A DNA stretch of 64,000 nucleotides from Chloroflexota bacterium (lineage in GTDB: Bacteria; Chloroflexota; UBA6077; CF-72). A program made the position numbers and the translations under genes. The notes under the pieces were generated by a model. The model was not told the DNA's origin. It ran no database searches and was given only the letters and a program-made list of their open reading frames with translations. This document shows positions 22,539 through 50,075 of the stretch, piece after piece. Location: contig JAFAZN010000199.1 of the NCBI GenBank assembly GCA_019239775.1, forward strand, positions 26,690 to 90,689, in the 5' to 3' direction. The first letter of the stretch is position 1. Every line of letters starts with the position of its first letter.

Positions 22539-24843
22539 CAGCCGTCGGCTGACGCATGCGAATCCGGTAGATGCCCTGCGCATCGGAGTAGTAGAGCGCG
22601 CCGTCAGGTCCGGTGGCGACATCGGAGCTGCAGCCTTGCTTCACGACCTCCTCAAAGCCGATCCGGTCGAAGGTTTGGGACGCGACATGTACGCGACGCA
22701 GCTGCTGCAGGTTCGCATTGCAGTAGAACCAGTCATTGGTCCAGTCGGGCAGTTGGTTGCCCAGATAGAACGTCGACCCAGTCAACCGGACCGGCGGCTT
22801 GATCACCGCCAGCGGCTGTAACGTGCCATAGTCTCCGCCGCGCACGATCATCTGTAACGCGTCGTGGTCCCCACTACTTTCTGCCGCGAGCAACTGATGC
22901 CCGAGTGGGTGAAACGCGAGGCTGGCGACATGATGGAGACCATACGCCCAAATCGCTGGCTGCTTCCCCTGCTGACCAACGAAGGGATTATCATCCGGTA
23001 CGGTTCCATCTGCATTGATGCGGAGAATCGTGCCTGACAGTGTCATGAGGTCTGGCGCCTTGCCAGTCGGACGGTCGTCGGCCACCGATACGTACAGTTT
23101 GCCATCCGGCCCAAACTGGATCGCGCCTGCGCCTGGCAGGTCCTGCAGGATCGGCTTCAAATCGGTCCCTTTGCTGTCAACGTCGGTGAGACGTACGATC
23201 TCGGAGGGCCCACTTGGAGCGGCGTAATAGGCATACACGAAGTGGTTGCGCTGAAAATCCGGATCCAGCGTAAGCCCGAACAAGCCCGAGTCTGGCTGAC
23301 TGGCAACCAGGAGCTGATAGAACGGATCTGGCAGCAACGCTCCGTCCTGCACGACGCGAATCGTGCCGGTCCGCTGCTCTGCATAAAACAGGCGCCCGTC
23401 CGGCGCGAACGACATCGCGGCCGGCATCGCCGCTCCGCTGACAAACGGTTCGGCAATGGCGCTGGCCGGCAGCTTGTCCGGTGGCAGTGCGCCTTGCGGC
23501 AACGGCGTCGGACTGGGTACCAGTGTGGGCGTCGCAGATGGAGTGGAACTCGCCGCCGGCATCGTGCTCGTGCGACTCATGACCATTCCAACCGGCTGAG
23601 ACGCCAATGCGACCGTCCGCATGACCTGAACAGTATCGGCGCTGATCACATCCAGCGCGTTCGTCGCCGCATCGCTTACAAACAGCACGGTCCCGTCCGG
23701 GTTCAGCGCGATTCCGGCCGGTTTGCTACCGACCGGCACCTGCGCCCGCACGCTTGTGGCGTCCGGTGTAACGAGCCATACGGCGCCGGTATCGTCACCA
23801 CCAACGACGTACAACGTGCCATCGTTTCCGATCGTTCCGGCCGAGGGCGGTGCGCCCAGGTCCAGGCGGTTTGCAATTCGCGATGTCGCGGTGTCGATTG
23901 ACACCACCTGGTTCAGCGTGCCAACGAGTACGTAGACACGTTGTCTCGCGGGATCAGGCAGCAGAAGCGTGGGTCCGCCACCGATGTCCAGTGCGTTTAG
24001 CACTGCGCCAGAACCTCCGTCTAGTGCCCACACGGTGCCGGTGCCAGCATCCGCTGCATAGAGGACGTCGCCGCTCGGACCAGCTCCTACTGCGAGGCTG
24101 GTGATTCGGTGAGGCAGGCTGACATCGGACGTCTGTTGCCCCAATGGAATGCGGCCGAACTCTTTGCCAGCACTGGAAGCAAACACCACCGTGCCGCCAA
24201 CTGCCACATATGCTCGCGATGCATCGGTTGAAAACGCAACCGCCAGCGGGCTCTCACCCTCGCGGAACTGGATGTCCTCGCGCCTGGCGCCACTGGGTAC
24301 ATCAAGGAGCGCCACTGAACCACCACGCCCCTGAGGTTTGAACACCCATGCCGTGCGCCCGTCCGGCGCCAACGTCATGCTGCCGGCTGGTTCGCTCAAG
24401 TCGACCGTACGTACTACGCGAGCCGAAACGGGATCGATCTCGGCGATACGGTTGTCTTTGGCCATACTGACCGCCACCAGCGGCACCAGTGTCTGCGCGG
24501 ACGGACTGGGGCTGGCAGCAACACGACTGGGCTTCGGCGGCACGGACGGCGAACCGCTGACACCTCCGGTCAGAGTAGAACCACCGGCTGGTCTAGGAAG
24601 TGGTTGGTCGGTGCTCTCCGGTTGGACCGTCGTTTCGAGAGTTCCTGGGTCAACACTTCGTGCGTCAACACCTCGTGGGTCAAAGTCCGGAGGATCGCTA
24701 TTGGTTACGGCAGTAACTGCGATGGGTGCGGTAGTAACGGTAGGTTGCATCGGATTTGATAGGTGGGGCTCGCAACCACCTTGCGCAAGCGCCACAGCGC
24801 CCAGCACCACCGCAACCGCCGCCGCCGCGCGAGTCCAGTGCAT
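22519..24843 (-). CDS. Secreted two-propeller protein: YVTN/YncE-like repeats + degenerate PQQ sugar dehydrogenase (GSDH)-like domain
   Basis: 774 aa. N-terminal signal/anchor, YVTN-type repeats (about nt 23584-24486), a P/S/T linker, then FAPDGRLFYAEQRTGTIRVVQDG...GLFGLTLDPDF...FGPDGKLYVS (about nt 22549-23460). Several GSDH consensus motifs are replaced (see findings). Confidence 0.8.
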   Translation of the reverse strand: MHWTRAAAAVAVVLGAVALAQGGCEPHLSNPMQPTVTTAPIAVTAVTNSDPPDFDPRGVDARSVDPGTLETTVQPESTDQPLPRPAGGSTLTGGVSGSPSVPPKPSRVAASPSPSAQTLVPLVAVSMAKDNRIAEIDPVSARVVRTVDLSEPAGSMTLAPDGRTAWVFKPQGRGGSVALLDVPSGARREDIQFREGESPLAVAFSTDASRAYVAVGGTVVFASSAGKEFGRIPLGQQTSDVSLPHRITSLAVGAGPSGDVLYAADAGTGTVWALDGGSGAVLNALDIGGGPTLLLPDPARQRVYVLVGTLNQVVSIDTATSRIANRLDLGAPPSAGTIGNDGTLYVVGGDDTGAVWLVTPDATSVRAQVPVGSKPAGIALNPDGTVLFVSDAATNALDVISADTVQVMRTVALASQPVGMVMSRTSTMPAASSTPSATPTLVPSPTPLPQGALPPDKLPASAIAEPFVSGAAMPAAMSFAPDGRLFYAEQRTGTIRVVQDGALLPDPFYQLLVASQPDSGLFGLTLDPDFQRNHFVYAYYAAPSGPSEIVRLTDVDSKGTDLKPILQDLPGAGAIQFGPDGKLYVSVADDRPTGKAPDLMTLSGTILRINADGTVPDDNPFVGQQGKQPAIWAYGLHHVASLAFHPLGHQLLAAESSGDHDALQMIVRGGDYGTLQPLAVIKPPVRLTGSTFYLGNQLPDWTNDWFYCNANLQQLRRVHVASQTFDRIGFEEVVKQGCSSDVATGPDGALYYSDAQGIYRIRMRQPTAATPAPG

Positions 24844-26822: not shown

Positions 26823-29486
26823 CTATGGCCCAACAACGGTCAGGGTCGCAGCCATCCCCTGCTGCTCATGCCCTGGGATGGGGCAGACCAACCGATACTC
26901 GCCTGGTGCGAGCACCATCTGCAGCGTGCGCGACTCGCCCGCACCGAAATCGTCGGTACTGACGTCGAGTCCTTGTCCCTCAATTCGAAACGCGTGTGCA
27001 GTCTCACCCGTGTCTTCAGCAAGGAATCGAATCGTCCCGGCCGGAACTTTGGTGCGCGACGGTTGCAGCTTCCATTCGCTCAACGAGACGTTCACATCGC
27101 GGTCTTCAGGCCGAGTACCCTCTGGCAGCTCCTCAGGCGTAGACGTAGGCGCGGCTTCGGCCGAAGCCGCGGCCGCTCCGGTGGGCGCCGCAATGAGGTC
27201 GACGGCGTCCACACTGTAAACTCGATAAATGCCTTTGGCGTCGGTGTAATACAGGGCGCCGTCCGGAGCGTTCGCAATACCCAGACTGCAACCCTTCTTG
27301 GCGACTTCCTCGAAGACAACGCGATCGCGACTCTCTGGTGCCAGGTGCACACGTCGCAGCTGACCCTGGTGATAGTTGCAGTAGAACAGGTCGTTCTTCC
27401 AGTCGGGGACCTGGTTACCAGTAAAGAATGCCGCGCCGGTTGGACCAATCGGGGGATTCATCACCGCGATCGGATCGACGACGCCGGGCGCGAACTTGTA
27501 GCCGGTAGGCGGCCAGCCGTAGTTGGCGCCCCTGATAATCAAGTCCAGCTCGTCGTTGTCACCGGGCCCGTTTTCGGTCGCAAACAGACCGTGCTGTAGG
27601 GGATCAAAGTCGAAACTGAAAGGGTTGCGCAGACCATACGCCCAGACTGCACCCTGCTTGCCCGGCTGTCCGGCAAACGGGTTGTCGTCAGGGATGGTCC
27701 CATCTGAATTCACTCGCAGAATTTTGCCAGCCATGCTTCCGAGATCCTGCGCGTTTGACCCCTGGTCGTTGTCGCCCAGCGACAGATACAGCTTGCCGTC
27801 TGGCCCGAAGCGCAGCGTGCCTGAGTTGTGGATCGGGCCTGACGGCAGATCACGGAGAATTGGCGTCAGTTCAGTGCCTTTGTTGTTCACGTCCGTCAGA
27901 CGCACCACTTCGTTTGGCCCGTTCGTCCCGCCATTATCCTGACCATCGGGGACAGACGTGTAAAAGACATACACGTAGTGATTGGTGTCAAAGTCCGGAT
28001 CGAGCGCCAGGCCAATTAATCCGGTCTCCGGCTGGCCCGCTACTTTAAACTGGAAAAATGGATCGGGCAACAGCGTCCCATTTTGTACGACGCGAATCTT
28101 CCCGGTGTGCAGCTCGTTGTAGAACAGCGTTCCATCAGGCGCGAACGCGAGTGACACGGGTGAGTCCGCCGGCATGAATTGTTCGGCGACAACCCCGGCG
28201 GGCAGGTGCTCCGCGGGTTGCGCTCCGTCCGGCAGCGGAGTTGGAGAAGGCACCATTGTCGGAGTCGGGGTGGGGTGCGACGCAGCAGCCGCCGCGGGAC
28301 TGGCGCTGGCGGTCGCCGCGCCACGACCCCGTGCTACAACGACAAGGGCTGTGTCCTTGCCGGTAACGATCTTCGACGCAACCTGATTGACTTCGAGGTC
28401 CAGCACAGCCAGCGCACCGTCCCCAGCGAGCGTGACATATGCCCGCTCGCCATTGAGACTGATCGCCAGTCCGGCCGGTTGGGAGCCGACAGCAACAGGC
28501 GAACCGACGCGCCAGTTTGTGAGGTCGATGGGCCACACCTCGCCCATATCTGTACCGGACACGTAGAGCATTCCGTTTGGCGCAAGGGCGGCGCCGCCCG
28601 GTCGTCCTGGCAAACTCAGACGCTTTGTGATGGACTGGTCGACGGTACTAACTGCAAGTAATTCGTTCGTCGTATCAGCCAAGACGTAGACCGCTTGTCG
28701 CTCCGAGTCGGGCACCAGCGCAATGGGGCCTCCGCCCGTTTCGATCTGTGCCACGAGTCCGCCGGAGCCCCCGTCCAGCGCCCACACCGTACCGCTCGCG
28801 TGCCCCGCGACGTACACGACGTCGCCAGTTGGTCCGCTGGTTACCGCGAGTGCGTCCAGTCTCCGCTGAATCTGGACCCCGGGCGTCGTCTGGCCGAGAT
28901 CCACATGCCCGAATTCGCTGCCGTTCTTGGCATCCAGAAACACGACGCTGCTCGGAAGGGGTGGTGATTCGTTGCCGCCACCGAGCGTGACGTAGGCCCG
29001 CCGGCCATCGGAGGAAAACGCGGCGGCGCTCGGGGTACTACGCAACCGATGGCTGTCGGTATGCGCGTTCTTTGCCAGATCAACCGTGACAAAATCGCTG
29101 GCACCTGGCTTGTTGCTGAACACCCATGCGGTTTGACCGTCCGGCAGGAGCGCCATGCTCTGCACTGGCGTCCCAATATCAACACTGGCGGAGATTTTGC
29201 CGCTTGCGGTGTCAATCAATGACAGTCGCTGGTCAGTCCGACTGGCAACCGCTACGACCTCCGGTTGGACCGGAGTCGCCGTGCCCAATGGGCGTGGTGA
29301 CACCGACGGCACCGGCGCACTCGCTGATCGGCCGGGTGTCGCGCTAGCGGGTGTCGGTGTGCTGGCGCCTGAAAACACTGCCGCGGCCGAAAGCGCGGCG
29401 TCTCCGTTATTGTTCGTGGAAAACGCGAAATAGCCAACGAAAGCCAATACAGCCAGGCCCAAGAGCGTCCGTAGACCATGACGCAT
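26823..29486 (-). CDS. Secreted three-domain redox protein: YVTN/YncE-like propeller + PQQ-dependent sugar dehydrogenase (GSDH family) + type-1-copper cupredoxin
   Basis: Start at MRHGLRTLLGLAVLAF (ATG 29486). GSDH motifs are intact: FAPDGTLFYNELHTGKIRVV, GLIGLALDPDF, IHNSGTLRFGPDGKLYLSLGD, AQD, GKILRV, DNPF, WAYGLRNPFS, ENGPGDNDELDLIIRGANYGWP. C-terminus reads TAHAF...YRLVCPIPGHEQQGMAATLTVV. Confidence 0.85.
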   Translation of the reverse strand: MRHGLRTLLGLAVLAFVGYFAFSTNNNGDAALSAAAVFSGASTPTPASATPGRSASAPVPSVSPRPLGTATPVQPEVVAVASRTDQRLSLIDTASGKISASVDIGTPVQSMALLPDGQTAWVFSNKPGASDFVTVDLAKNAHTDSHRLRSTPSAAAFSSDGRRAYVTLGGGNESPPLPSSVVFLDAKNGSEFGHVDLGQTTPGVQIQRRLDALAVTSGPTGDVVYVAGHASGTVWALDGGSGGLVAQIETGGGPIALVPDSERQAVYVLADTTNELLAVSTVDQSITKRLSLPGRPGGAALAPNGMLYVSGTDMGEVWPIDLTNWRVGSPVAVGSQPAGLAISLNGERAYVTLAGDGALAVLDLEVNQVASKIVTGKDTALVVVARGRGAATASASPAAAAASHPTPTPTMVPSPTPLPDGAQPAEHLPAGVVAEQFMPADSPVSLAFAPDGTLFYNELHTGKIRVVQNGTLLPDPFFQFKVAGQPETGLIGLALDPDFDTNHYVYVFYTSVPDGQDNGGTNGPNEVVRLTDVNNKGTELTPILRDLPSGPIHNSGTLRFGPDGKLYLSLGDNDQGSNAQDLGSMAGKILRVNSDGTIPDDNPFAGQPGKQGAVWAYGLRNPFSFDFDPLQHGLFATENGPGDNDELDLIIRGANYGWPPTGYKFAPGVVDPIAVMNPPIGPTGAAFFTGNQVPDWKNDLFYCNYHQGQLRRVHLAPESRDRVVFEEVAKKGCSLGIANAPDGALYYTDAKGIYRVYSVDAVDLIAAPTGAAAASAEAAPTSTPEELPEGTRPEDRDVNVSLSEWKLQPSRTKVPAGTIRFLAEDTGETAHAFRIEGQGLDVSTDDFGAGESRTLQMVLAPGEYRLVCPIPGHEQQGMAATLTVVGP
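26826..27101 (-). other. Cupredoxin domain with complete type-1 Cu ligand set (His857, Cys894, His899, Met904 in maximal-ORF numbering)
   Basis: Codons verified on the sequence: TGC 26883-26885, CAT 26868-26870, ATG 26853-26855 (minus strand). The pattern C-x4-H-x4-M follows an upstream His in ETAHAF. Confidence 0.8.
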
Positions 29487-29487
29487 G

Positions 29488-31224
29488 TCAGTGACTGGCC
29501 AGTGCGGACTGGAGGCGATCCAGCGCTGTTTGTACTTTCGCGTTATCGCCTGCCGCGGCCTCACGCGCCGCGGTGAGTGCGCTGCGAATTTGGTCAGCGC
29601 GTGGATCGTTGACGCCCTGCAATGCTGCTTCGGCTTTGGTGGCTTCCGAATTCACCGCATCACGTCTTTTGGCCAGCTCGTCCGGCGACTGATGCTGGTC
29701 CTGCGCGGCCTGGCTCAGTGCTGTCAGCGCGTTCACAACGCCACCTCCGACTTGTTGCGAATCCAGCTTCGGACCCGGTGTGGACTGCGTTTGGGGACTG
29801 GGTACCGCGGTACCGGGCACGGTACCGGCTGGAGCACCAGCCGCCACCGGTCGGAGTGCCACGCGTGCGTCGGCTAGCTTGTTGGTGTCACCCGCGAATG
29901 CTGCGCGAATCGCATCGACGGCTGTCAGCACTTGCTGTGCAGGGGTGCTCTGAACGCCCTTCAGGCTTGTTTCCGCCTGGTCTGCCTGGTCGGCGAGAGT
30001 TTTCTGGAGGCGGAGCATCGAGCCGGTGTCGTTCTTTTGAAGCGCCGACTGAAAAGCGGCGATTGTCGCGTCCAGGTCGGCCGCGAAACCCTTGATATCG
30101 GTAATGGGTTTGGCGCTGGATGAGCCCTGCGAGGCGGCATCACCGGAGACCTTGCCAAGGTCTGCTCGTGCGCTGCCCAACTTGCTCAGGTCACCTGAGG
30201 CAGTCGCGCGCGCAGCGTTGATTGCGTTGCGTAACGCCACTGCTTGCGCGGATTGGTCTGTGCCCAACGCGGCCTCGTCCTGAGTCGCTTCGTTCAGAAT
30301 CTCCTGCTGGAGCCGGAGCAAGTCGGACTGGCTCGCGGTGGAGGTCGCGGTCGAAAACGCATCCATTTTCGCGGCAAGTGAAGCCGCGAGTCCGGCGTAG
30401 TCGGGAGCACTCTCCGCCGGACCCGCAGCGCCTCCAAGTTTGTCGAGCGCGTCGCCGGCGGTAGCCAGCGCGGTCGCGTCGCCGTCGAGGCCTTTCTGAA
30501 GCAGCGCCAGCGCATCGGTCAGCGCCTTGCCTTGAGCCGAGGTGTCGCTGCCGGCGATCTTCTGAACCGGACCGATCTCTTCGACCAGCTTGCCTTGAAG
30601 GCGCAGCGCATCTCCGGCGTTCTTGCTCTGCACCGCCTGGCGCAGATTGCGCACGTCCTCCGCGACGGTTCTGACGTCTGCAACGCCGCCTGAATTGGAC
30701 GTGTCGGACGTGAGCTGAGCGATGCTCGTCGAACCACCGATGACCTGCCGCAGCGCCGCGTCGGCGTGATCGAGTCCATTGGTGTCACCACCAATCGCTT
30801 GCCGAATGTCGGCTATGGCGCCTCGCACCGCCTGCGCCTGCGGGGACTTATCGCTCTTGAGCGCGGTATCTGCGTCGTTGGCGGCCGCCAACAAATCGCG
30901 CTGGTCCTTCAGCGCGCCGTTCACATCCTGATCGCGCAGCGCGGTGCGGAACGCACCGAGCTTTGCGTCGAGCGATGCTGCGGCTGGCGTGAGTGCTTGA
31001 CTCGGCGCGACGGGTGTTGGAATCGGCAGCGGCGTCGGACGCGGAGTAGGCGAGGGCACGGCTGTCGGCGACTCCTCCGCCGTCGGGACCGTGGCGACCT
31101 CAGTCGCGGTCGGGACATCCGTAGGCGGGGGCGCCCCCGCTCCAGGGATTGCCGACTGGCAGGCCGTGGCCGCCACGAGTGCCGCCGCACAAGCCAGGTG
31201 AGAAATCGCTTTGCTCCCTACCAT
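29488..31224 (-). CDS. Lipoprotein built from five roughly 85-100-aa Ala-rich helical repeats
   Basis: Signal LVAATAC, a P/T-rich linker, then five units. Each ends in a motif like AQAVRGAIADIRQAIGGDTNGLDHADAALRQV / AQQVLTAVDAIRAAFAGDTNKLADARVALRPV / ADQIRSALTAAREAAAGDNAKVQTALDRLQSAL. The stop lies 1 nt before the next gene's start. Confidence 0.6.
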   Translation of the reverse strand: MVGSKAISHLACAAALVAATACQSAIPGAGAPPPTDVPTATEVATVPTAEESPTAVPSPTPRPTPLPIPTPVAPSQALTPAAASLDAKLGAFRTALRDQDVNGALKDQRDLLAAANDADTALKSDKSPQAQAVRGAIADIRQAIGGDTNGLDHADAALRQVIGGSTSIAQLTSDTSNSGGVADVRTVAEDVRNLRQAVQSKNAGDALRLQGKLVEEIGPVQKIAGSDTSAQGKALTDALALLQKGLDGDATALATAGDALDKLGGAAGPAESAPDYAGLAASLAAKMDAFSTATSTASQSDLLRLQQEILNEATQDEAALGTDQSAQAVALRNAINAARATASGDLSKLGSARADLGKVSGDAASQGSSSAKPITDIKGFAADLDATIAAFQSALQKNDTGSMLRLQKTLADQADQAETSLKGVQSTPAQQVLTAVDAIRAAFAGDTNKLADARVALRPVAAGAPAGTVPGTAVPSPQTQSTPGPKLDSQQVGGGVVNALTALSQAAQDQHQSPDELAKRRDAVNSEATKAEAALQGVNDPRADQIRSALTAAREAAAGDNAKVQTALDRLQSALASH

Positions 31225-31229
31225 GGTCG

Positions 31230-31868
31230 TCAGTCCTTCGCAACCGTGAAAGTGGCAGTCACCTCCGTCTGGCTGTGTTCGCCGACGAAGATCAGCGTGT
31301 TGTCTCCAGTGAGGTCCTGCAGCGCGACGGCATTCTCGGCAGTGATCCGCCCGTCGGAGTCCGCGGTGACCTGAGCTACGGGTGCGTTCGTGCGCGTGTT
31401 GAGATAAACGGCTACGGCTTCACCCGGAACGAAGTCTTCGCCAGCGAATCCCACTCCGCTCTGCGGTGAGATGTAGTAGCTGCGCAACACTACCCAGGGG
31501 TGAAAGCCTTGCACGTTGAATCCAACCGAGGCCGGTGTCTGGGACGTGCGTCCGACGAAGGTCAACTTGTAGTCGCCAGCGCCGAGAAAGGGAACCGCGA
31601 CGTCCGTTCCGGATATTTCACCGCGAGTATCCGCTGTCACCGTAATAAGCGGATCCGCTGTCTGGTCCCCCAGAAATGCATCCACGGGTTCGCCCGGGGC
31701 GAAGCCGGAGCCGCTGAAGCTAAATGTTTGGCTCGGCTTGCCTGTGTACGTCTGCAGATGTACCGCTGGCGGACCAGAATCGGCAGTGGCCGGAGTGGCC
31801 GCCATCGTGCAAGCAAGTGCGACCAGGGTCCGGACGACATTGACATAGTGCTTCGGCGAAGGGATCAC
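31230..31868 (-). CDS. Secreted protein with two copies of a roughly 100-aa Ig-like module
   Basis: GTG start in a GTGA overlap with the upstream stop. Signal peptide present. Modules carry FSFSGSGFAPGEPVDAFL and VGFAGEDFVPGEAVAVYL, each followed by D..G motifs and LTFVG / LIFVG strands. Confidence 0.6.
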   Translation of the reverse strand: MIPSPKHYVNVVRTLVALACTMAATPATADSGPPAVHLQTYTGKPSQTFSFSGSGFAPGEPVDAFLGDQTADPLITVTADTRGEISGTDVAVPFLGAGDYKLTFVGRTSQTPASVGFNVQGFHPWVVLRSYYISPQSGVGFAGEDFVPGEAVAVYLNTRTNAPVAQVTADSDGRITAENAVALQDLTGDNTLIFVGEHSQTEVTATFTVAKD

Positions 31869-33796
31869 GCGCCGGACTCCTTTGGCGGAAGGGTGAGCTG
31901 GGTGCCAGCTTGAAGGACGTTCGGGTCATTGCCGATTGCCGCCTTGTTGGCGTCGTAAATCGCCTTCCACTGGTTCGCGTCGCCGTACACGGCGGCAGCG
32001 ATCGACGGCAGTGTGTCGCCGGCCTTGACGGCGTACGTCGCGCTGGGCGGCGAGGCTGGTGCAGCCGTCGCGGCCAGCGTGGCTGCCACGGACGGTGCTG
32101 GCGTACTCCGCTTCGCGGGTGTTGGACTCCCCTTCGCCGGCGTTGGACTTCCCTTCGTCGGCGCCGGCGTCGCTTGCGGCGTGGTACTCGCGGCAGCCCG
32201 CACGTTCGGCGAGGGCTTCGGAACCGCGGTCGGACTCGTCTGCTCGGGCGCGGGAGTATCAGCTGTTGCGCCAGCCGCGGCCGCTGCAACAGCCCCCGCC
32301 GAGACCGGTGGGCCTTGCACGACACCGACCACCTGCGGCGCATCGGGACCATCCGTCAAATCGCAGGCAAATGGCGCTTGTGGTGGAACCTGAACCGGAA
32401 CATCTGAGGCAATGACTTCCAACGCAGCCGTGGCGGCTGCCTGGCTTCGGCTACCAATCAACGTGAACACCAGCTGGCCAGGACTCGCGTCACCGGGCAC
32501 GACGTACGAGCCACCGGAGGCGGCGTTGCCCTGGCCGTCGGTCCGGAAGCAACTCACCTCCTGGCCGGCGTCGGCGTCTGTCCGCCCGACAAACGCGTGC
32601 ACGATCTCGTTGCGCGCAAAGCCGATCGCGTAAAACGTCAATGTTGTGCCGGGACGTCCACCGTACGTGCTGGGCTGCGCGCTTGGTGTGTACGGCAACG
32701 TGTCAAAGCTGGCGGTCGTCGGCGCTTTGCTCTGGCTGCCAACGAAAATCAGCGTTTGCTTGCCCTGGAGTCCGAACGGCACGAGAAAACCACCAGAATT
32801 CGTGAATCCGCCGGTATCGTCCGTCTGAATCGTCGTCAGCGCGGGAGTATCAGGATCATTGAGAAAAACAGTCACCTGTTCGCCAGGACCAAAATCCTTG
32901 CCAGAGAAGCTGAGCACGTTGTCAGGTTTGATCGCGTAGCTCGAAAGGTCTACGCTTGGATACAGGTTCAGCAATTGGAACGCGACGGTTACCGGCGACT
33001 GGCTCTTGTCGCCAACGAACACGAACGCGTTATTGCCGACCGCACCGAACGGCACGCGGACAGAGCCTTGCCGCACAGTGCCAGCCTCGTCCGTTTGCAC
33101 AGTGCCGATCGAGTCGCTGGACAGATCGTTCCAGTACACCGTGATCGTCTCGGTCGGGTCGAAGCCGCTCGCCGACAGCTGGATGGTGTCGCCGGATTTG
33201 GCGGCTTGCGTTCCCAGTTTGACCTGCGGCGATCCTCCCGCAATGACGGCCGTCGCGGTGGCAGCATTGTCGCTTTCCCTTTCTCTCGCCTGAACGACGA
33301 AGCTGCCACGGGGTAGCGAATCGGGCACGGCAAATGTCACTCCGCCAAAACCGCCACTCTTATCGACCTGGACAAAGGTCAACGGATCGACGCTGTCTGT
33401 CACCTGTTGTTTGACATAGATATCCAGCGTGGCGCCCGGATCGAAGCCGCTGCCCGTTACGCCCACGCTCGAGCCCTGCCTGACGGTGCTCGGATTGAGC
33501 AATACCAGTGGTCGCGCTTCGATCGACACGGCAGTGCCCTGGATTTGCACGACCAATGGAGTTGGAGTCGGCCCGTTGGCCTGTGCCGCGGCGGGAGTCC
33601 GCCCGGCAACCGGCGTCGTCGTAGCCGGTGCATTGCCGTTGCGCACGCCCGGAGTGCCGCGCTGGGCGCTAGCGCCTGTTGTGTCCACAGCCACCTCTCC
33701 GCCTGAGCCAGAACCCGTCAAGATGATGCGAGCGACAACCAGCACCAGGATGAGCCCTGCGCCCACCGCGATGAGGCGTTGTTTCATCCGAGCCAA
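31865..33796 (-). CDS. Membrane-anchored surface protein: four Ig-like modules + P/A/T linker + C-terminal LysM
   Basis: N-terminal TM (ATG 33787 gives MKQRLIAVGAGLILVLVV). Modules with VGVTGSGFDPGATLDIYV, LSASGFDPTETITVYW, FSGKDFGPGEQVTVFL, FYAIGFARNEIVHAFV. LysM is YAVKAGDTLPSIAAAVYGDANQWKAIYDANKAAIGNDPNVLQAGTQLTLP (about nt 31868-32035). Confidence 0.7.
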   Translation of the reverse strand: MARMKQRLIAVGAGLILVLVVARIILTGSGSGGEVAVDTTGASAQRGTPGVRNGNAPATTTPVAGRTPAAAQANGPTPTPLVVQIQGTAVSIEARPLVLLNPSTVRQGSSVGVTGSGFDPGATLDIYVKQQVTDSVDPLTFVQVDKSGGFGGVTFAVPDSLPRGSFVVQARERESDNAATATAVIAGGSPQVKLGTQAAKSGDTIQLSASGFDPTETITVYWNDLSSDSIGTVQTDEAGTVRQGSVRVPFGAVGNNAFVFVGDKSQSPVTVAFQLLNLYPSVDLSSYAIKPDNVLSFSGKDFGPGEQVTVFLNDPDTPALTTIQTDDTGGFTNSGGFLVPFGLQGKQTLIFVGSQSKAPTTASFDTLPYTPSAQPSTYGGRPGTTLTFYAIGFARNEIVHAFVGRTDADAGQEVSCFRTDGQGNAASGGSYVVPGDASPGQLVFTLIGSRSQAAATAALEVIASDVPVQVPPQAPFACDLTDGPDAPQVVGVVQGPPVSAGAVAAAAAGATADTPAPEQTSPTAVPKPSPNVRAAASTTPQATPAPTKGSPTPAKGSPTPAKRSTPAPSVAATLAATAAPASPPSATYAVKAGDTLPSIAAAVYGDANQWKAIYDANKAAIGNDPNVLQAGTQLTLPPKESGA

Positions 33797-33991: not shown

Positions 33992-35305
33992 ATGCCGGTG
34001 TTACTGGATGTCTTTGTGCTCGGTTCGCTGGTGTTGTCCATCCTGCTGACCATCCAATCCGCGTACACCCTCTATCTGATGCTCTACACATGGGACAGCC
34101 CAGAGTCGCATTCGGCAGCCAAGGCGCCCGCCGAGTTCCTTCCCCCAGCGCGCTCGTTTACGGTGATGCTGCCGGCGCGTCATGAGGAGGATGTGATCCA
34201 GACCACAATCGAGCGCGTCGTCCGCGCGAACTATCCGGCGCACTTGTTGGAAATCGTCGTGATCTGCAAGACAGATGACCAGGGCACCATCGCGCAAGCG
34301 GAGGAAAAGATCGCGCGGCTACGGTCGGAGGGGGTCAGCAACGTGAATGTTCTGACCTTCAGCACGCCACCCACGAACAAACCTCACGGGCTGAACGTTG
34401 GACTGGCAGCGACATCCCATCAGATCGTCACCATTTTCGACTCTGAAGACGACATCCACCCGGACATCTTCAACGTCGTGAACACGGTGATGCTGACGGA
34501 GAACGTCAACGTCGTGCAGAGCGGTGTCCAGCTCATGAACTACGATTCGAACTGGTACTCCACACTCAACGTGCTGGAGTATTTCTTCTGGTTCAAGAGC
34601 CGCCTGCACTACCATGCGCGGGCCGGCATGACGCCGCTCGGCGGCAATACCGTGTTCTTCGCGAGGAACGTGCTAGAGCGAGCTGGTGGTTGGGACGAAC
34701 GTAACCTCACGGAGGACGCCGACGTCGGGATCCGTATCAGCTCGATGCGGGAGCCGGTGCGCGTTGTCTACGACGACCGGTACGTGACTCGTGAAGAGAC
34801 GCCACCGTCGTTAAACCACTTCATTCGACAGCGCACGCGGTGGAGTCAGGGCTTCCTGCAAACGTTGAAAAAGGGCGACTGGACGCGCCTACCGACGTTC
34901 GAGCAGCGTTTGCTGGCGATTTACACGCTGATGTTTCCGAGCATCCAGACCGTGCTGGGGCTGTACGTCGTCGTCTCGCTGGCGACGATGTTCACGATCA
35001 AGACACCCGTGCTGGTGGCCATCACGCTGTCATTGCCGCTGTACTTGCTACTGGCCCATCTTTTGTTGGCAATAATCGGCCTGTACGAGTTCGCGGCGGC
35101 TCACCATCTCAAGCCGACCTGGACAACGCCGCTGGTCATGATCATCACGTATTTGCCCTACCAATGGGTGCTGTCCTACGCCTCAGTGCGCGCCACGATC
35201 CGCGAGCTGCGCGGCATCAACAACTGGGAGAAGACGGCACACGTCGGTGCACACCGGGTGGAGTCAGCTCCGAGTCGTTCTGCCGCAGGCGCCAAGATCG
35301 GCTGA
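33992..35305 (+). CDS. Membrane-embedded processive family-2 glycosyltransferase (synthase type, NodC/PgaC/cellulose-synthase-like)
   Basis: N-terminal TM, GT-A core FTVMLPARHEEDVI, IFDSEDDIHPD, LTEDADVG, and QRTRW at 34829-34843 followed by about four TM helices. No PilZ domain. Confidence 0.85.
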   Translation: MPVLLDVFVLGSLVLSILLTIQSAYTLYLMLYTWDSPESHSAAKAPAEFLPPARSFTVMLPARHEEDVIQTTIERVVRANYPAHLLEIVVICKTDDQGTIAQAEEKIARLRSEGVSNVNVLTFSTPPTNKPHGLNVGLAATSHQIVTIFDSEDDIHPDIFNVVNTVMLTENVNVVQSGVQLMNYDSNWYSTLNVLEYFFWFKSRLHYHARAGMTPLGGNTVFFARNVLERAGGWDERNLTEDADVGIRISSMREPVRVVYDDRYVTREETPPSLNHFIRQRTRWSQGFLQTLKKGDWTRLPTFEQRLLAIYTLMFPSIQTVLGLYVVVSLATMFTIKTPVLVAITLSLPLYLLLAHLLLAIIGLYEFAAAHHLKPTWTTPLVMIITYLPYQWVLSYASVRATIRELRGINNWEKTAHVGAHRVESAPSRSAAGAKIG

Positions 35306-35324: not shown

Positions 35325-36911
35325 ATGTTCGGTTGGTGGCGTTTCGATCGCATTCTGCTCCTTGCGAGCGTCGCGGCCGGCGCGCTTACGCACGGCTACA
35401 ACCTCTTCAACTACCCGTTGTACATCACCGACGAAGGCATTTACATCCAGCAGGCGTGGGCGGTACTGCGCGAGGACCGACTCTCGCCCTACACCTACTT
35501 CTACGATCACGCGCCGGCTGGCTGGCTCGCCATCGCGACCTGGGTCGCGCTTTTACCGGGGCAGTTCCAGACGTTTGGCAATGCGCTCAACACCGGTCGT
35601 GCGCTCATGCTGGTTTGCCACGTGATCAGCACGTTCCTGCTGTACCGGATCACCCAGCGGTTGTCGGGCAGCCGCGTGAGTGCCGTGGTCGCAACGTTCT
35701 TTTTCAATGTGTCGCCGCTGGCGGTGTTCTATCAGCGCGAGGTCCTGCTGGACAACGTGATGGTCATGTGGCTGCTGCTCGCGGTATTTTTCCTGACATC
35801 GGGGCGGGAATGGCGTGATGGTGACCTGCGTATCGTCACGGTGATTTTGAGCGGACTCGCGTTCGGTGTCGCCGTGCTCACCAAAGAAAACGCGCTGTTC
35901 TTCGCACCCGCATTGACGTACGTGCTGTTCAAACGCTTGCGCGGTCGGATGAACTACCGCTTCAGCATGGGCTTCTGGTCGTTCTCGGCCATCTCCTCGA
36001 TCTCCATCTATTTTCTCTACGCGACGCTGAAGAACGAGCTGCTGCCATCCAATTTCAGCTTTGATCTCAACAACCCACCGGCCGACCACGTATCCCTCTT
36101 GTACTCCATCTGGTGGCAGCTGCACCGTGGTGAGGGAACCATTCTGGACGCCAGTAGTCCAGTATGGCGCTTCTCGCTCGGGGCGTGGCTTCCCAAAGAC
36201 AGCTTCATTCTCGCCGCGGGCGCCGCGGCGACCCTGGTCAACTTAGCCGTTGGATTGCTCTCTCATGGCCGCAAACGCGAAGGGACTATCGTGGGAGCGC
36301 TCGCACTCAGCTACGGAGTGTATCTCGCACGTGGCAGCGAAATGCTCGAGTTCTACGTCGTGCCATTGTTGCCATTCCTCGCGATGAACATCGGTCTTCT
36401 CCTAGGTTGGTGCGTGGCGGTGTTGCCGAACCGCATTCGCGCGATTCCGGCGATCATCCTGGTGATGGTGTTCACGCTAAATCCGCTGTGGGGCTACGTC
36501 CTGGTCATCGACGAGTTCGGCCACGTCGTCCCACATGACCTGTACAAGCTCGGCCAGACCTATATGCAAGAACAACAGCTCCAGTGGATACGGCAGAATG
36601 TGCCGCCCGATGCAAAGCTGATCATCGACGACGACATGTGGGCGGACCTGCACGACGTCAAGCCGTACTACCGTTTCGCGCATTCGCACTTCAAGGCCGC
36701 ATCTGACCCGGACGTCCGCGACAAGCTTTTCGGGAAAGACTGGCGCAATATCGATTTCATCGTCATGTCGAACAAGATGCGTGATGCGATGACCCTGAAT
36801 AATGCGGACGGCTCGGAGAGTTGGATCCTGCAGGCGCTCGACAACTCCACCAGAGTCTGGTCCGTACAGCACGGCGATGTCGAGCTCGAGGTCGACAAGG
36901 TGAATGGATGA
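35325..36911 (+). CDS. Polytopic GT-C-type membrane protein (GT39/PMT_2- or ArnT-like glycosyltransferase)
   Basis: 528 aa with many TM helices. The first loop reads LYITDEGIYIQQAW (DE motif), then YFYDHAPAGWL. A C-terminal soluble domain of about 130 aa follows. The family call is from loop motifs only. Confidence 0.6.
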   Translation: MFGWWRFDRILLLASVAAGALTHGYNLFNYPLYITDEGIYIQQAWAVLREDRLSPYTYFYDHAPAGWLAIATWVALLPGQFQTFGNALNTGRALMLVCHVISTFLLYRITQRLSGSRVSAVVATFFFNVSPLAVFYQREVLLDNVMVMWLLLAVFFLTSGREWRDGDLRIVTVILSGLAFGVAVLTKENALFFAPALTYVLFKRLRGRMNYRFSMGFWSFSAISSISIYFLYATLKNELLPSNFSFDLNNPPADHVSLLYSIWWQLHRGEGTILDASSPVWRFSLGAWLPKDSFILAAGAAATLVNLAVGLLSHGRKREGTIVGALALSYGVYLARGSEMLEFYVVPLLPFLAMNIGLLLGWCVAVLPNRIRAIPAIILVMVFTLNPLWGYVLVIDEFGHVVPHDLYKLGQTYMQEQQLQWIRQNVPPDAKLIIDDDMWADLHDVKPYYRFAHSHFKAASDPDVRDKLFGKDWRNIDFIVMSNKMRDAMTLNNADGSESWILQALDNSTRVWSVQHGDVELEVDKVNG

Positions 36912-38398
36912 AAAGACAACAGCGAAACTGGTGGTTTGTGTTCGTACTCGTGGTCATCTGCGGGATCGTTCTGGGCGCTGCCATCCTGGTTCCACCTTAC
37001 GTGGCGGTAGCGCCAACGCAGGCACGCCTCGACCGCTTGCGGGGCCAGTCCGCCTTTGTGGCCGGCCTGAACTATCCATGGAAGACGGGTCAGGACTTCG
37101 GAACTGGCGCCTGGGGCCACTCGGGTGTGAGCGACCCCACCACATACCAGGAGGTCGACGCGGATTTCGCCAACATGGCGGCGCAGGGGGTTCGAGTCGT
37201 GAAGTGGCGGATCTTCAACGATGGTCGCTACGGCCTGGAGTTCGCCGCGGATGGCTCGGTCATCGGAGTGGACGACCTGTTCTTCCAGGACGTCGACGCG
37301 GCCCTCGAGATCGCTTCCCACCACGACGTGTACCTGGTCTTCACACTGTTTTCCAGCGGTTTCTGGACGGCCGACTGTCAGAGCAATGGCGTCCAGCTCG
37401 GGGGGCATGCCGATCTCGTTGTGGACCCGAACAAACGGAAGTCGCTCATTGAGCATGCTGTAGTGCCGCTGCTGACGCACGTCGCCAGCTCCGATCGCAT
37501 ACTCGCCTACGAGGTCGTTGCCGAACCCGAATGGGGCGTCCAGGAACTGAACTCGGACCCCGATCAACGTATCAAATTACCACTTGGAGCCGTCCACGAC
37601 TTTGTCACGGACCTCGTCACCGCGGTTCACGCAAACACGCGGTCTTTGGCCACGCTGGAGTCCAATCGTTTCAGCAACATGCGACAGTGGCAAGGTACGG
37701 GTGTTGATTACTACAGCTTCAGCTGGTATGACTGGTTGGAGCCATATGAACCGCTGGCGACTACAGCCAGCTCCGCAAGTCTGGATAAACCAATTGTTCT
37801 GGGCGAATATCCCGCCGGTGGCAGCGCATATTACTCCGTGCCACAGGTGCTTGACAGCATGGACACACTCGGATACGCCGGAGCCTTCGGCTGGAGTTAC
37901 TGGGCAGGTGACGGCATCAGCGACTGGCGCGACGTGGCTCCGACGTTTAGCGACTGGGTTGGCGCTCATTGGGCCGACGTCGATGTCGGCGGGAACGCGC
38001 CTGTACCCAGTGCAGGCCCGATCCAGGAGCATCCCTATCCATACTCCGTCACGGACCTCTCGGTACACGCAGAGAACGGTGTGGTCACAGCCGACATGAC
38101 CATCGACGTACCGTCTGGTGAGGCGTATGTGCCGCATGCGTACCTCTACGACGTCGGGTCTCCGCAGCCCCTGGAGGACGTGCGCCTCACAGCAGCACCC
38201 GGGCAACCTGGCAAACTTGAAGCCCGCTTCACCTCTGTTGGTGAAGGCACTACCTACTCCCTAAGCCTTGGCATTTTCGATCCCGCGGGCGCGCTGCACA
38301 AGTGGTTCAATGATCTGTCGACGTTTGCCATCGCCGGTGGAGCGCTCACAACCCCCCACGTCGACGCGCTCGCGAACGAACTCGGGTGCAGCAGCTGA
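36908..38398 (+). CDS. Membrane-anchored clan GH-A (TIM-barrel) glycoside hydrolase-like protein with C-terminal beta-rich domain
   Basis: ATG 36908 overlaps the upstream TGA (ATGA). TM is WWFVFVLVVICGIVLGAAIL. LAYEVVAEPEW (NEP-like acid/base strand) and IVLGEYPAG (nucleophile-like strand). GH family not assignable by eye. Confidence 0.55.
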   Translation: MKRQQRNWWFVFVLVVICGIVLGAAILVPPYVAVAPTQARLDRLRGQSAFVAGLNYPWKTGQDFGTGAWGHSGVSDPTTYQEVDADFANMAAQGVRVVKWRIFNDGRYGLEFAADGSVIGVDDLFFQDVDAALEIASHHDVYLVFTLFSSGFWTADCQSNGVQLGGHADLVVDPNKRKSLIEHAVVPLLTHVASSDRILAYEVVAEPEWGVQELNSDPDQRIKLPLGAVHDFVTDLVTAVHANTRSLATLESNRFSNMRQWQGTGVDYYSFSWYDWLEPYEPLATTASSASLDKPIVLGEYPAGGSAYYSVPQVLDSMDTLGYAGAFGWSYWAGDGISDWRDVAPTFSDWVGAHWADVDVGGNAPVPSAGPIQEHPYPYSVTDLSVHAENGVVTADMTIDVPSGEAYVPHAYLYDVGSPQPLEDVRLTAAPGQPGKLEARFTSVGEGTTYSLSLGIFDPAGALHKWFNDLSTFAIAGGALTTPHVDALANELGCSS

Positions 38399-38402
38399 AC
38401 CT

Positions 38403-40151
38403 ATGCATCGATCCGTACTGGTGTCAATCGCAACGGTTCTCACCTCCGTCGTGGTAGCGAACGTGGTCCTCCTCCAGTCACCATCGCGACGGACTGGCCC
38501 GCAGGCGGCTGCAACCGTGGACACTGAGAGACCGACCTCCGTTCCGCCGTCGGCGACAGCGACGCCCGATCCGTTCGCTGCATGCCAACACGATCCCGCG
38601 AATCTCCCCCCGCTCCAGTCTGGCACCACGTTCCACACGTGCGGTGCGCAGATCATGAACGCGGACGGTCACCCCGTACGAATTACGGGTGTCAGCTGGT
38701 TTGGTATGGAAACGGGCACCTATGCGCCGCATGGTTTATGGACTCGCAATTGGAAGGCGATGCTGGACCAGATCGCGGCGATGGGCTTCAACACGGTCCG
38801 CATCCCGTTCAGCAACGATGCGCTGACGCCAGGGCGGATGCCGCAGAACATTAACTACGCCGTCAACCCGGACCTCGCAGGCAAAACCAGCCTCCAACTG
38901 CTGGACATGTTGGTGCAGGGCGCCGGCGAACGCGGATTGAAGGTCATCCTCGATCGACATCGGCCGACCTCCGCGGCTCAGTCTGATCTCTGGTACACAG
39001 ACGATGTTCCGGAGGAGCGCTGGATCGCCGATTGGGTGATGCTCGCCCAGCGTTACGAGAACCAGGCCGCGCTGCTTGGTGTGGACCTGCACAACGAGCC
39101 GCGCGGTCCGGCGACGTGGGGCAGCGACGACGTGAGCACCGATTGGCGGCTGGCTGCAGAACGCGCCGGAAACGCGATTCTCGCGGTGAATCCGTACGTG
39201 CTGATCTTTGTTCAAGGCATCGAACGCAGCGGCGACGACTGGTATTGGTGGGGCGGCAATTTTCTGGATGCTCGAACGGCTCCGGTTCAACTGGCAGTGC
39301 CGGGTAGGGTCGTGTATTCGCCTCACGACTACGGACCCGACGTCTATGCGCAGCCCTGGTTCAGCGCCGCGGATTTTCCGAACAATCTGCCAGGCATCTG
39401 GGACGCACATTGGGGCTATCTGGCTACTGACCAGGCTGCGCCGGTGGTGCTTGGCGAGTTTGGCGGAGCCGTGAGTGACGGCGCCGAGGGCATCTGGCAG
39501 CATGCGTTGATCGATTACGCCCAGGCGCATTCGATTGGCTGGTTGAGCTGGGCGTTCAATCCGAATTCCGCCGACACCGGCGGGCTGCTCGCGGACGACT
39601 GGCTGACGGTCGTACAATCCAAGGCAGACCTGTACCAGGGGCACCTGGCGCCGCCGCTCGACGTAGGCTCGACCGGCGTCTTTGGACAGGCGCAAACTCG
39701 CCTGTCAGTTCAGGGTCGCAGTACGAGCACCACCGCCCAGACATCCAACATTGGCTTCGTTCTCCAGATCGTCAACGACGGCCCGACCCCGGTCGACTTT
39801 AGCCAGCTGGAGCTGCGCTACTGGTTTAAACCCGGCACATCGATAGCGACTCAGCAGGTGAATATCGACTATGCGGCGGTCGGCGCAGCGAATATCAGTG
39901 GTCGGTTCGACCCTCCCGACGCCAGTGGAGTCGGCGCGCTGAGCCTCACGTTTGCACCTAACGCGGGATCAATCAGTCCATACACCTCCAGCGGTGACAT
40001 CGATGTCCGCATTCACCGACTGGACTGGACGCCCTACGATCAAATCGTCAATTTCAGCTTCCGACCCGAATCAACGCTGGTCGAATGGGACCATGTTGGC
40101 CTGTATCGAGCGGGCGTGCTGGTCTGGGGCACGCCACCCGCGGGACTCTAA
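38403..40151 (+). CDS. GH5 endoglucanase (E1-like) with C-terminal CBM3
   Basis: ATG 38403 with an N-terminal anchor. GVSWFGMETGTYAPHGLW, ILDRHRP, LHNEPRG, LGEFGG. The CBM3 pattern from about nt 39700 reads NIGFVLQIVNDGPTPVDFSQLELRYWF...IDYAAVG...RIHRLDWTPYDQIVNFSF. Confidence 0.88.
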   Translation: MHRSVLVSIATVLTSVVVANVVLLQSPSRRTGPQAAATVDTERPTSVPPSATATPDPFAACQHDPANLPPLQSGTTFHTCGAQIMNADGHPVRITGVSWFGMETGTYAPHGLWTRNWKAMLDQIAAMGFNTVRIPFSNDALTPGRMPQNINYAVNPDLAGKTSLQLLDMLVQGAGERGLKVILDRHRPTSAAQSDLWYTDDVPEERWIADWVMLAQRYENQAALLGVDLHNEPRGPATWGSDDVSTDWRLAAERAGNAILAVNPYVLIFVQGIERSGDDWYWWGGNFLDARTAPVQLAVPGRVVYSPHDYGPDVYAQPWFSAADFPNNLPGIWDAHWGYLATDQAAPVVLGEFGGAVSDGAEGIWQHALIDYAQAHSIGWLSWAFNPNSADTGGLLADDWLTVVQSKADLYQGHLAPPLDVGSTGVFGQAQTRLSVQGRSTSTTAQTSNIGFVLQIVNDGPTPVDFSQLELRYWFKPGTSIATQQVNIDYAAVGAANISGRFDPPDASGVGALSLTFAPNAGSISPYTSSGDIDVRIHRLDWTPYDQIVNFSFRPESTLVEWDHVGLYRAGVLVWGTPPAGL

Positions 40152-50069: not shown

Positions 50070-50075
50070 GCCCCG

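Follow-up and report, generated by a model that had tools for sequence, protein, structure and literature searches.

The soluble dehydrogenases of the GSDH family, which use pyrroloquinoline quinone (PQQ) and are represented by sGDH (1c9u), YliI/Asd (2g8s), 3a9g and 2ism, are extracytoplasmic, single-domain enzymes of ~350-450 amino acids (aa) with separate or unknown electron acceptors. In a 64,000-nucleotide stretch of a Chloroflexota genome (assembly GCA_019239775.1, contig JAFAZN010000199.1, positions 26,690 to 90,689; the whole stretch is called the window), the last gene of an apparent four-gene operon, gene D, encodes an 887-aa protein that resembles these enzymes in its His, R-N and E-x-G-P...D-E motifs and in its predicted extracytoplasmic site, but in which the dehydrogenase is one domain, preceded by a YVTN propeller and followed by a type-1 copper domain (cupredoxin), and the whole is anchored. 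The three genes that precede it, A, B and C, encode putative surface proteins.

Cupredoxins are familiar as separate partner proteins of quinoproteins, examples being methylamine dehydrogenase with amicyanin and alcohol dehydrogenase with azurin. D resembles these pairs, and also the quinohemoproteins, in the proposed path from a quinone-cofactor dehydrogenase to a one-electron protein and on to the respiratory chain; in the known quinoproteins, however, the cupredoxin is separate or the built-in carrier is a c-type cytochrome, whereas in D the cupredoxin is fused, and such fusion is found in three further architectures. Fungal CcPDH (AA8 cytochrome b, AA12 and CBM1) and cellobiose dehydrogenase (CDH) are likewise exported oxidoreductases with an attached one-electron carrier, in cellulase-rich organisms, but D differs from them in that its carrier is a cupredoxin and not haem b, its dehydrogenase belongs to PF07995, it has no carbohydrate-binding module (CBM) and no linked lytic polysaccharide monooxygenase (LPMO), and it is membrane-tethered. 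In Streptomyces, the cslA-glxA-cslZ(-lpmP) cluster combines a GT2 synthase with a membrane-anchored copper oxidase and an endoglucanase for glycan deposition. The window shares with it a monoderm, filamentous-type host and a processive GT2 whose gene neighbours those of an endoglucanase and a putative membrane-anchored copper oxidoreductase, but GlxA is a copper radical oxidase, whereas the window has a PQQ/type-1 copper protein, no LPMO, and in addition a PMT_2 glycosyltransferase and immunoglobulin-like (Ig-like), LysM and helical proteins.

A preprint of July 2026 (bioRxiv 10.64898/2026.07.10.737718) describes exported six-bladed PQQ enzymes, some of them from Chloroflexi, in clusters of carbohydrate-active enzyme (CAZyme) genes, and proposes that they oxidise reducing ends and pass electrons via cytochromes to a terminal oxidase. 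Those enzymes are AA12-like, mostly of the lanthanide type, with cytochrome c partners or haem domains, whereas the metal-site loop of D is sGDH-like (Gly-Pro); the preprint makes no mention of a cupredoxin fusion, a YVTN fusion or an operon of Ig-like, LysM and helical lipoprotein genes. Cbp2D and Cbp2E of Cellvibrio japonicus and TERTU_2913 and TERTU_3803 of Teredinibacter turnerae are exported, multidomain, cellulose-linked redox proteins proposed as LPMO partners (PMC10916295); their domains include CBMs and c-type cytochromes, PQQ was not bound by their PQQ-like domain, and they have no sequence relation to the products of genes A to D. An earlier note on this DNA, made from the sequence alone, knew of no described bacterial system of such composition, and in agreement with it the literature searches found no description of a PQQ-dehydrogenase/cupredoxin fusion or of the A-D operon. 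This novelty is tempered by the fact that cupredoxins are known quinoprotein acceptors as separate proteins, and by the association of such enzymes with CAZyme clusters already reported in the preprint.

Domains and cofactor motifs of gene D

The genes of the operon, in order of transcription, and the three domains of D are as follows.

31865..33796, minus strand: gene A, 643 aa from TTG
31230..31868, minus strand: gene B, 212 aa
29488..31224, minus strand: gene C, 578 aa
26823..29486, minus strand: gene D, 887 aa from ATG 29486 (longest open reading frame (ORF) from GTG 29564, 913 aa)
28302..29279, minus strand: YVTN (YncE-like) beta-propeller of D, residues ~70-395 (TIGR02276, 34.6 against a cutoff of 27.85)
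27207..28184, minus strand: six-bladed GSDH-family PQQ aldose dehydrogenase domain of D, residues ~435-760
26826..27119, minus strand: cupredoxin domain of D, residues ~790-887, preceded by a linker

The central domain of D matches the GSDH profile PF07995 nearly throughout (residues 441-748, profile positions 2-322 of 332; 227.8 bits against a cutoff of 25, 2.8e-67), and its closest solved relatives are 3a9g of Pyrobaculum (1.6e-40), 2ism of Thermus, 2g8s of E. coli and sGDH 1c9u, over a range of 1.6e-40 to 1.6e-27. The stretch IHNSGTLRFGPDG (H553, IHNSG) aligns with yIHNGGrIRFGPDG of 3a9g and lHsGGrIaFGPDG of 2ism; YGLRNPF aligns with yGhRNPqG of the solved relatives; and the E-x-G-P...D-E Ca loop followed by NYGWP is found in register, ENGPGDNDELDLI..NYGWP aligning with EHGPvgHDEVNII..NYGWP, TENGPGDNDELDLIIRGANYGWP aligning with TEHGPvgHDEVNIIlkGGNYGWP, and TENGPGDNDELDLI..NYGWP lining up with the motif of the solved GSDH relatives. 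From the sGDH/Asd literature, we take these motifs to hold the catalytic-base His, the residues that contact PQQ, to which Arg residues nearer the C-terminus (R711, R712) would also belong, and the loop that binds Ca. Among 24 relatives of D aligned down to 48% identity, H553, R620-N621, G640-P641-G642-D643, D645-E646 and Q709-L710-R711-R712 are invariant in all 24. The lanthanide-type, AA12-like metal site of the 2026 preprint was considered for D and ruled out, the loop being of the Gly-Pro type of sGDH and Asd. The AA12 profile PF22807 (TrAA12) is not among the matches of D at E <= 0.01 and gives only a faint match on relatives, and none of the CBM families scanned matches D.

The C-terminal domain matches Cupredoxin_1 (PF13473) at residues 793-877 (29.7 bits against a cutoff of 27), with weak matches to SoxE, the N-terminal domain of EfeO and CopI, and to a CuA-domain scaffold (6pty) at 7e-6. 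Its predicted copper ligands H831, C868, H873 and M878 (C-x4-H-x4-M) are invariant in the same 24 relatives. Cysteine occurs in D only at residues 703, 733 and 868, so that the motif has a single Cys and a mononuclear type-1 site is predicted, not CuA; likewise there is no CxxCH and so no haem c. The binuclear CuA site prompted by the CuA-scaffold matches in the Protein Data Bank (PDB) was rejected because of this lone Cys.

The N-terminal part of D, behind a signal or anchor sequence and before a Pro/Thr linker to the GSDH domain, matches in part the 7-bladed YncE model and TIGR03866 ('PQQ-dependent catabolism-associated beta-propeller'), and its best matches among solved structures are the YVTN propeller of the S-layer protein 1l0q (8.6e-29) and 3vgz/7seu (4.5e-8). 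The match to TIGR03866 implies that such propellers are already known as genomic companions of PQQ catabolism; here the propeller is fused to the PQQ dehydrogenase itself. By profile and motif, then, D is a GSDH-family protein with a type-1 cupredoxin, and not a quinohemoprotein or a member of the CDH/AA12-AA8 group, and its sequence bears the marks of a functional Ca/PQQ aldose dehydrogenase that is wired to type-1 copper.

The reading we favour, at about an even chance, is that D is a membrane-tethered, reducing-end sugar dehydrogenase in which blue copper takes electrons from PQQ and relays them to another acceptor. D would be held on the external side of the membrane by its N-terminal anchor, and its Ca/PQQ GSDH domain would turn free sugars or oligosaccharides into lactones by oxidising the C1 hydroxyl at the reducing end. 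In this subclade the likeliest substrates would be glucose, cellobiose and cellodextrins released by neighbouring E1-type GH5 endoglucanases. The two electrons of PQQH2 would leave one at a time via the C-terminal type-1 copper domain, making D the putative copper counterpart of the quinohemoprotein dehydrogenases.

The window also contains a paralog of D.

22519..24843, minus strand: paralog E, 774 aa, YVTN and GSDH-like domains without a cupredoxin; His motif, R-N pair and G-P/D-E loop lost

Paralog E, which also has deletions of 5 aa and 11 aa, was considered as a second active enzyme and rejected on its motif loss. Across the clade of cupredoxin-less paralogs (P0048-P0067, ~50-55% identical to D), 18 sequences were compared: R620 is replaced in 15, mostly by His, the Gly-Pro pair is lost in 17, D-E is often D-A, and the His of the catalytic motif is lost in eight, paralog E among them. 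The cupredoxin-less paralogs may be pseudo-enzymes or binding proteins. Intact PQQ/Ca motifs thus track the presence of the cupredoxin, a pattern expected if both cofactors belong to one electron path. A second GSDH gene, similar to paralog E, follows D in one of the related loci treated below (P0002).

These comparisons also bear on whether D might be no working PQQ/Cu oxidoreductase at all, its propellers and cupredoxin fold having a binding or structural function in a surface layer. The archaeal S-layer protein 1l0q is the best solved match of the YVTN domain, the operon partners A, B and C all appear structural, and paralog E, in the same window, has lost its active-site motifs; GSDH-fold proteins without PQQ do exist, namely HHIP, which is among the structure matches of D, and the T. 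turnerae domain (PMC10916295). The invariance of the His, R-N and Ca-loop motifs and of all four copper ligands down to 48% identity, with motif decay exactly in the paralogs that lack a cupredoxin, is instead the pattern expected under selection for catalysis, and it makes a purely structural D very improbable.

Fusion of a PQQ dehydrogenase to a cupredoxin is not confined to the relatives of D. A library-wide search with the cupredoxin domain of D returned 4356 related domains, and large proteins among these matches were scanned with Pfam. P0350 combines an eight-bladed PQQ dehydrogenase of the alcohol/glucose type (PF01011) with C-terminal matches to Cupredoxin_1 and to plastocyanin-type copper domains; P0376 has two CarboxypepD_reg domains, a GSDH domain and a C-terminal cupredoxin-type match; and in P0342 cupredoxin-type matches flank the GSDH domain on both sides. 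Together with D, these three proteins suggest that copper-wired PQQ dehydrogenases are a recurrent design and not a one-off. PQQ dehydrogenases would accordingly be wired in some lineages to copper and not to haem, in at least four architectures, which extends the quinohemoprotein concept, and a PQQ/copper fusion is of practical interest for biosensors based on direct electron transfer.

P0350 looks like a copper analogue of the type II quinohemoprotein alcohol dehydrogenases. Many other proteins, among them P0297, P0299, P0301, P0317 and P0319, carry 4-10 tandem copies of the cupredoxin type found in D; in P0301 an N-terminal CBM96 precedes four cupredoxins. By analogy with multihaem cytochromes, the tandem proteins may be multi-copper electron 'wires', of which no description was found.

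The operon and the shuffled gene kit

The junctions of the operon were read on the sequence: the stop codon of A and the start codon of B share 4 nt (GTGA at 31868-31865), a gap of 5 nt separates B from C (TGA-cgacc-ATG), and a gap of 1 nt separates C from D (TGA-c-ATG). The start of A is likelier to be ATG 33787 than the TTG, since homologs align from residue 4, and the 887-aa ATG start of D is favoured because the consensus N-terminus of 23 relatives is MxxxRxxLL. A promoter and terminator scan of positions 26000-34500 gave counts close to the shuffle expectation and nothing that could be placed. All four products bear export or anchor signals, A and D an anchor, B a signal peptide and C a lipobox. 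From the tight junctions and the recurring gene order (below), A-B-C-D behave as an operon.

Thirteen loci with a D-type gene were compared (the window, P0002, P0027, P0043, L001, L002, L003, L005, L006, L007, L008, L013 and L015), together with L016, which has none; the P0002, P0043 and P0027 loci, from JGI, were compared from gene tables. The close relatives of D all come from uncultured sources, the named ones being metagenome-assembled genomes of Chloroflexi/Chloroflexota and the others metagenome contigs.

Gene A encodes an N-terminal hydrophobic membrane anchor, about four Ig-like modules of the GxPGS type in a ~90-aa register (residues 97-462), a Pro/Thr/Ser-rich linker and a LysM domain. 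The register is evident from self-matches (88-135 with 182-229, 137-224 with 228-314, 190-270 with 280-361, and 229-312 with 319-403); the internal repeats of A, like those of C, were seen by windowed self-comparison, whereas plain self-BLAST gave none. The Ig-like span aligns with B and with two further proteins of the window (41546-43186 and 43677-44966), and matches the Ig-like model NF058592 below its cutoff. The LysM profile PF01476 is matched over its full length at residues 588-637 (nt 31886-32035; 22.6 bits against a cutoff of 20.9), with a partial match to NF008399 (41 bits). Orthologs of A with 62-79% identity are present in L002, L005, L015 and L016, and the LysM module is kept in the first three.

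The product of gene B has a signal peptide, and its AlphaFold2 model (predicted local distance difference test score, pLDDT, 84) has 14 strands forming two Ig-like beta-sandwiches. In Foldseek this model comes closest to adhesin extender repeats (6xi3, 3.4e-9), Bap, RbmA, SiiE and macroglobulin domains; the search returned generic adhesin and Ig-like matches, with no specific likeness to a cohesin or a CBM. Relatives of B fall into 154 clusters at E <= 0.001, and the best 120 of the 154 are two- and three-module forms, all without a name. On the model, folds of the B type are structural, not catalytic. Gene C encodes a putative lipoprotein (lipobox Cys22) with a Pro/Thr-rich linker and five repeats at ~100-aa offsets, each modelled by AlphaFold2 as a four-helix bundle (78-163, 184-263, 276-366, 377-461 and 489-576; pLDDT 80-90 within repeats). 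Foldseek found no significant fold match to this model in the PDB, only generic bundles of the catenin, vinculin and talin type, and its relatives, in 73 clusters, are all hypothetical and without a Pfam family except for one fusion with a SARP regulator. The non-catalytic products of A, B and C together probably make up a membrane-to-peptidoglycan scaffold or an adhesin layer.

The earlier note's account of the four genes stood up well: the four minus-strand ORFs and the spacings of -4, 5 and 1 nt were found as it gave them, A with its membrane anchor, four Ig-like modules and C-terminal LysM agrees with the repeats and the LysM profile, B as an exported two-module protein of the same family with the signal peptide and the two modelled modules, C as a lipoprotein of five helical repeats with the lipobox and the five bundles, and D as an 887-aa YVTN, GSDH and cupredoxin protein with three profile matches, all above cutoff. 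The co-conservation that it asked of the four genes holds in part, as the order A-B-C-D, facing a divergent glycosyltransferase (GT) operon, recurs in four other loci (P0002, at 73% identity, L002, P0027 and L015), but the unit is not obligate: L005 has A-C-D without B, its divergent GT operon being kept, and L016 (7266-17859) lacks a GSDH gene altogether, its A-B-C being followed on one strand by genes for a mannanase-like GH5, two Ig-like proteins and an endoglucanase of GH5. Thus the scaffold genes can accompany GH5 genes independently of D.

Elsewhere the association is looser. Relatives of C and of D apparently share 12 contigs besides that of the window. In L003 a co-directional run of GT2, Ig-like, C-like, mannanase-like GH5, GH5-CBM3 and Ig-like genes ends 0.7 kb upstream of a solitary D. 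L006 has a C-like and a GH5 gene on the upstream side of D, at ~5-8.5 kb, and L007 a GH5-CBM3 gene that converges with D. Near D in L013 are a MalT/LuxR-type regulator and an Ig-like protein of the kit, whereas L001 and L008, where D is ~47-50% identical, have no partner gene within 10 kb. The neighbours of D in the P0043 locus are PMT_2, a GH32N-like gene and, directly downstream, a gene (12895-14271) in which a GH5 cellulase is fused to LysM. Wall anchoring of cellulolytic proteins by LysM seems to be a theme in the clade of D. Overall, a GH5 'Cellulase' gene is found within 10 kb of D in nine of the 13 loci.

Judged by gene content, the real unit is a shuffled Chloroflexi gene kit, of which D is a frequent but dispensable member. 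The kit comprises A, B, C, two Ig-like lipoproteins, a mannanase-like GH5, an E1-type GH5 with or without CBM3, a GT2 synthase, PMT_2, often GtrA with a small GT2, and D; the lipoboxes and anchors on several of its proteins place the system at the cell surface. Stable-isotope studies implicate Chloroflexi in soil cellulose turnover, and the kit points to a surface system particular to a lineage of abundant, uncultured Chloroflexi of soils.

The probable electron acceptor and a possible link to oxidative cellulose cleavage

In Chloroflexi, blue-copper proteins serve as soluble respiratory carriers. The likeliest acceptor for the electrons of D would be the respiratory chain at the membrane surface, through a blue-copper carrier or a terminal oxidase; such a sink is the simplest because of these carriers, the membrane anchor of D and the lack of a linked LPMO. 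It parallels the model of the 2026 preprint for cytochrome-linked six-bladed PQQ enzymes.

Several points weigh against a sugar dehydrogenase with a respiratory sink. Genes for the respiratory chain, auracyanin or an oxidase are linked to D in none of the loci examined, and no PQQ biosynthesis genes were seen in the window. The PQQ-dehydrogenase-like domain from T. turnerae bound no PQQ (PMC10916295), so that profile membership alone is no proof of cofactor use. The mechanism assigns the YVTN domain no role. Relatives of D at <=52% identity are often without partners, and thus the substrates suggested by its neighbours apply to part of the family only. The divergent GT2/PMT_2 operon described below fits glycan synthesis or glycosylation as well as catabolism. 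The wall-anchored sugar-oxidising and electron-transfer assembly proposed in the earlier note is consistent with the operon, the export signals and the PQQ/Cu sequence features, but that the products of A, B, C and D associate physically is something that we purely infer.

D might instead be a bacterial counterpart of the CDH/AA12-AA8 enzymes, reducing an LPMO or another oxidative catalyst within a wall-anchored cellulolytic assembly. In principle D has the same design, an exported sugar-oxidising domain with a covalent one-electron carrier, and the GH5 endoglucanases near it, some with CBM3, provide the setting. The AA12 enzyme CcPDH drives LPMOs (PMC5960967), and no bacterial equivalent of fungal CDH is known according to a 2024 structural study (PMC10916295), which leaves the niche open. 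No LPMO_10 match was obtained, however, in the 48 window ORFs scanned (nearly all >=200 aa), nor is there one among the precomputed Pfam matches for the genes of 11 related loci; the profile of D is of the sGDH/Asd type and not AA12; D has no CBM and is tethered to the membrane rather than freely secreted; and it is dispensable, as L016 has A-B-C and GH5 without it. The analogy with CDH and AA12 as a feed for oxidative cellulose cleavage, which had been drawn from the sequence alone, is therefore not upheld; this reading of D is improbable, and the oxidative cleavage of cellulose is not the role favoured for it.

A broader proposal has a similarly small likelihood: that D and the other PQQ/cupredoxin fusions form an undescribed class of 'quinocuproproteins', with D as a wall-tethered counterpart of the CDH/AA12-AA8 enzymes that oxidises reducing ends and feeds oxidative polysaccharide cleavage, or extracellular chains of multi-cupredoxin proteins, in a new cellulolytic apparatus of Ig-like, LysM and lipoprotein components. 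D is nevertheless a concrete candidate in the question of a bacterial CDH equivalent, though the evidence favours a respiratory sink over LPMO support.

The divergent glycosyltransferase operon and other neighbours

On either side of the operon, the window contains the following members of the kit and related genes.

33992..35305, plus strand: membrane GT2 of the processive-synthase type, 437 aa, with FDSED, TED and QRTRW motifs (Glyco_tranf_2_3, 1e-37)
35325..36911, plus strand: PMT_2-type GT-C glycosyltransferase (PF13231, 3.9e-13)
36908..38398, plus strand: membrane-anchored GH5 beta-mannanase-like TIM-barrel protein (no Pfam match; 5y6t and 2c0h, ~1e-15)
38268..40151, plus strand: E1-type GH5 endoglucanase with CBM3 (Acidothermus endocellulase E1, 1ece, 6e-119); true start probably downstream of 38268
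40209..41576, plus strand: second E1-type GH5 endoglucanase
18026..19291, plus strand: GH5 endoglucanase with a lipobox signal, with orthologs near D in L002 and L015
41546..43186, minus strand: Ig-like lipoprotein of the A/B family, a kit member (NF058592, 48.8 bits against a cutoff of 45)
43677..44966, minus strand: Ig-like lipoprotein, a more distant A/B relative and kit member, with orthologs in L003 and L016 (49%) and L013 (40%)
47482..52615, minus strand: GH9 endoglucanase (47482-49191) downstream of a sugar ATP-binding cassette (ABC) transporter (two permeases and a binding protein)

The description of the operon as embedded among cellulases is right in so far as GH5, GH5-CBM3 and GH9 genes are present in the window, but the immediate neighbours are not cellulases: upstream is the GT2/PMT_2 operon, and on the downstream side are paralog E and the genes of a YkuD transpeptidase and a small exported protein, besides a small ORF. 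The conserved operon of GT2, PMT_2 and mannanase-like GH5 genes had been overlooked, and its conservation opens a reading in terms of glycan synthesis or glycosylation.

The GT2 gene begins 195 bp upstream of A, in divergent orientation. Its product has a weak likeness to BcsA (~3e-8), to PgaC/IcaA (7e-21, below cutoff) and to PcManGT (6yv7), a minimal cellulose-synthase-like mannosyltransferase. Orthologs of GT2 that are 72-86% identical adjoin the operon in L002, L005 and L015, and one lies 2 kb from D in L003; PMT_2 has orthologs with 75-76% identity in L002, L005 and L015, and is also present in the P0002, P0043 and P0027 loci. Orthologs of the mannanase-like GH5 (63-67% identity) are found in L003, L015 and L016, and those of the GH5-CBM3 protein in L003, L007 and L015. 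In L003 and L016, counterparts of the first Ig-like lipoprotein (41546-43186) share an operon with C-like and GH5 genes, and the block of GH9 and ABC transporter genes recurs in L003.

The two divergent operons might, by analogy with the Streptomyces cslA-glxA-cslZ(-lpmP) cluster, jointly make, decorate or deposit an envelope glycan, with D oxidising or otherwise modifying that glycan, or they might O-glycosylate the Pro/Thr linkers of surface proteins. The start-to-start arrangement of A with a GT2 bearing the TED and QRTRW motifs, kept in the window and in the P0002, L002, P0027, L015 and L005 loci, agrees with this, as does the presence in L002, L015 and the P0027 locus of all three parts of an extracytoplasmic glycosylation set, namely GtrA, a small GT2 and PMT_2. 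Genes of the C-like and Ig-like types in L003 and L016 run in the same direction as GT2 or mannanase-like GH5 genes, and Pro/Thr/Ser-rich linkers are present on A, C, D and a GH5 protein (GH5a). The pairing of a synthase with a membrane-anchored hydrolase is typical of exopolysaccharide operons. The E1-type GH5 with CBM3, and GH9 beside a sugar ABC importer, are on the other hand classical degradative equipment; GSDH enzymes need free reducing ends, of which a polymer chain has one; profile scans found no galactose-oxidase/kelch-type (copper radical oxidase) domain in D or its neighbours; and relatives of D stand away from any GT gene in L001, L007, L008 and L013. On balance a glycan-modifying role for D is unlikely, if less so than a structural one.

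Three MalT/LuxR-type STAND regulators are encoded in the window, at 5325-9997 and 20160-22538 (plus strand), and regulators of this type adjoin D in the window, in L006 (16300-17643) and in L013 (2449-4953). These regulators and the GH9/ABC importer block point to catabolism. The window also has many GAF histidine kinases. Taken with the MalT/LuxR regulators, the kinases suggest inducer-controlled regulation of the island.

Of the smaller genes downstream of D, 26295-26762 (plus strand) is a 155-aa ORF convergent on the end of D, made of repeats in which Arg-rich, helix-like stretches (RMLRRRRVLRAILLHLMRERYG) alternate with long Asp/Glu runs; it matches no family, none of the related loci has a counterpart, and it may be spurious or a lineage-specific small protein. 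The gene at 25030-25500 (plus strand) encodes a small exported helical protein of 156 aa without a family match, with a 42% identical homolog ~4.6 kb upstream of D in L006; in the P0002 locus a 156-aa gene comes just after D. Between the GH9/ABC block and the Ig-like lipoproteins (44967-47398, minus strand) are two ORFs of 281 aa and 529 aa that match no family, the latter having no counterpart in the related loci. Finally, a protein of ~290 aa with a weak match to PF10634 (Fe2+ transport) is encoded at 52878-53732 (plus strand), as is a similar one at 17719-18603 in the P0027 locus, both within 6-25 kb of D.

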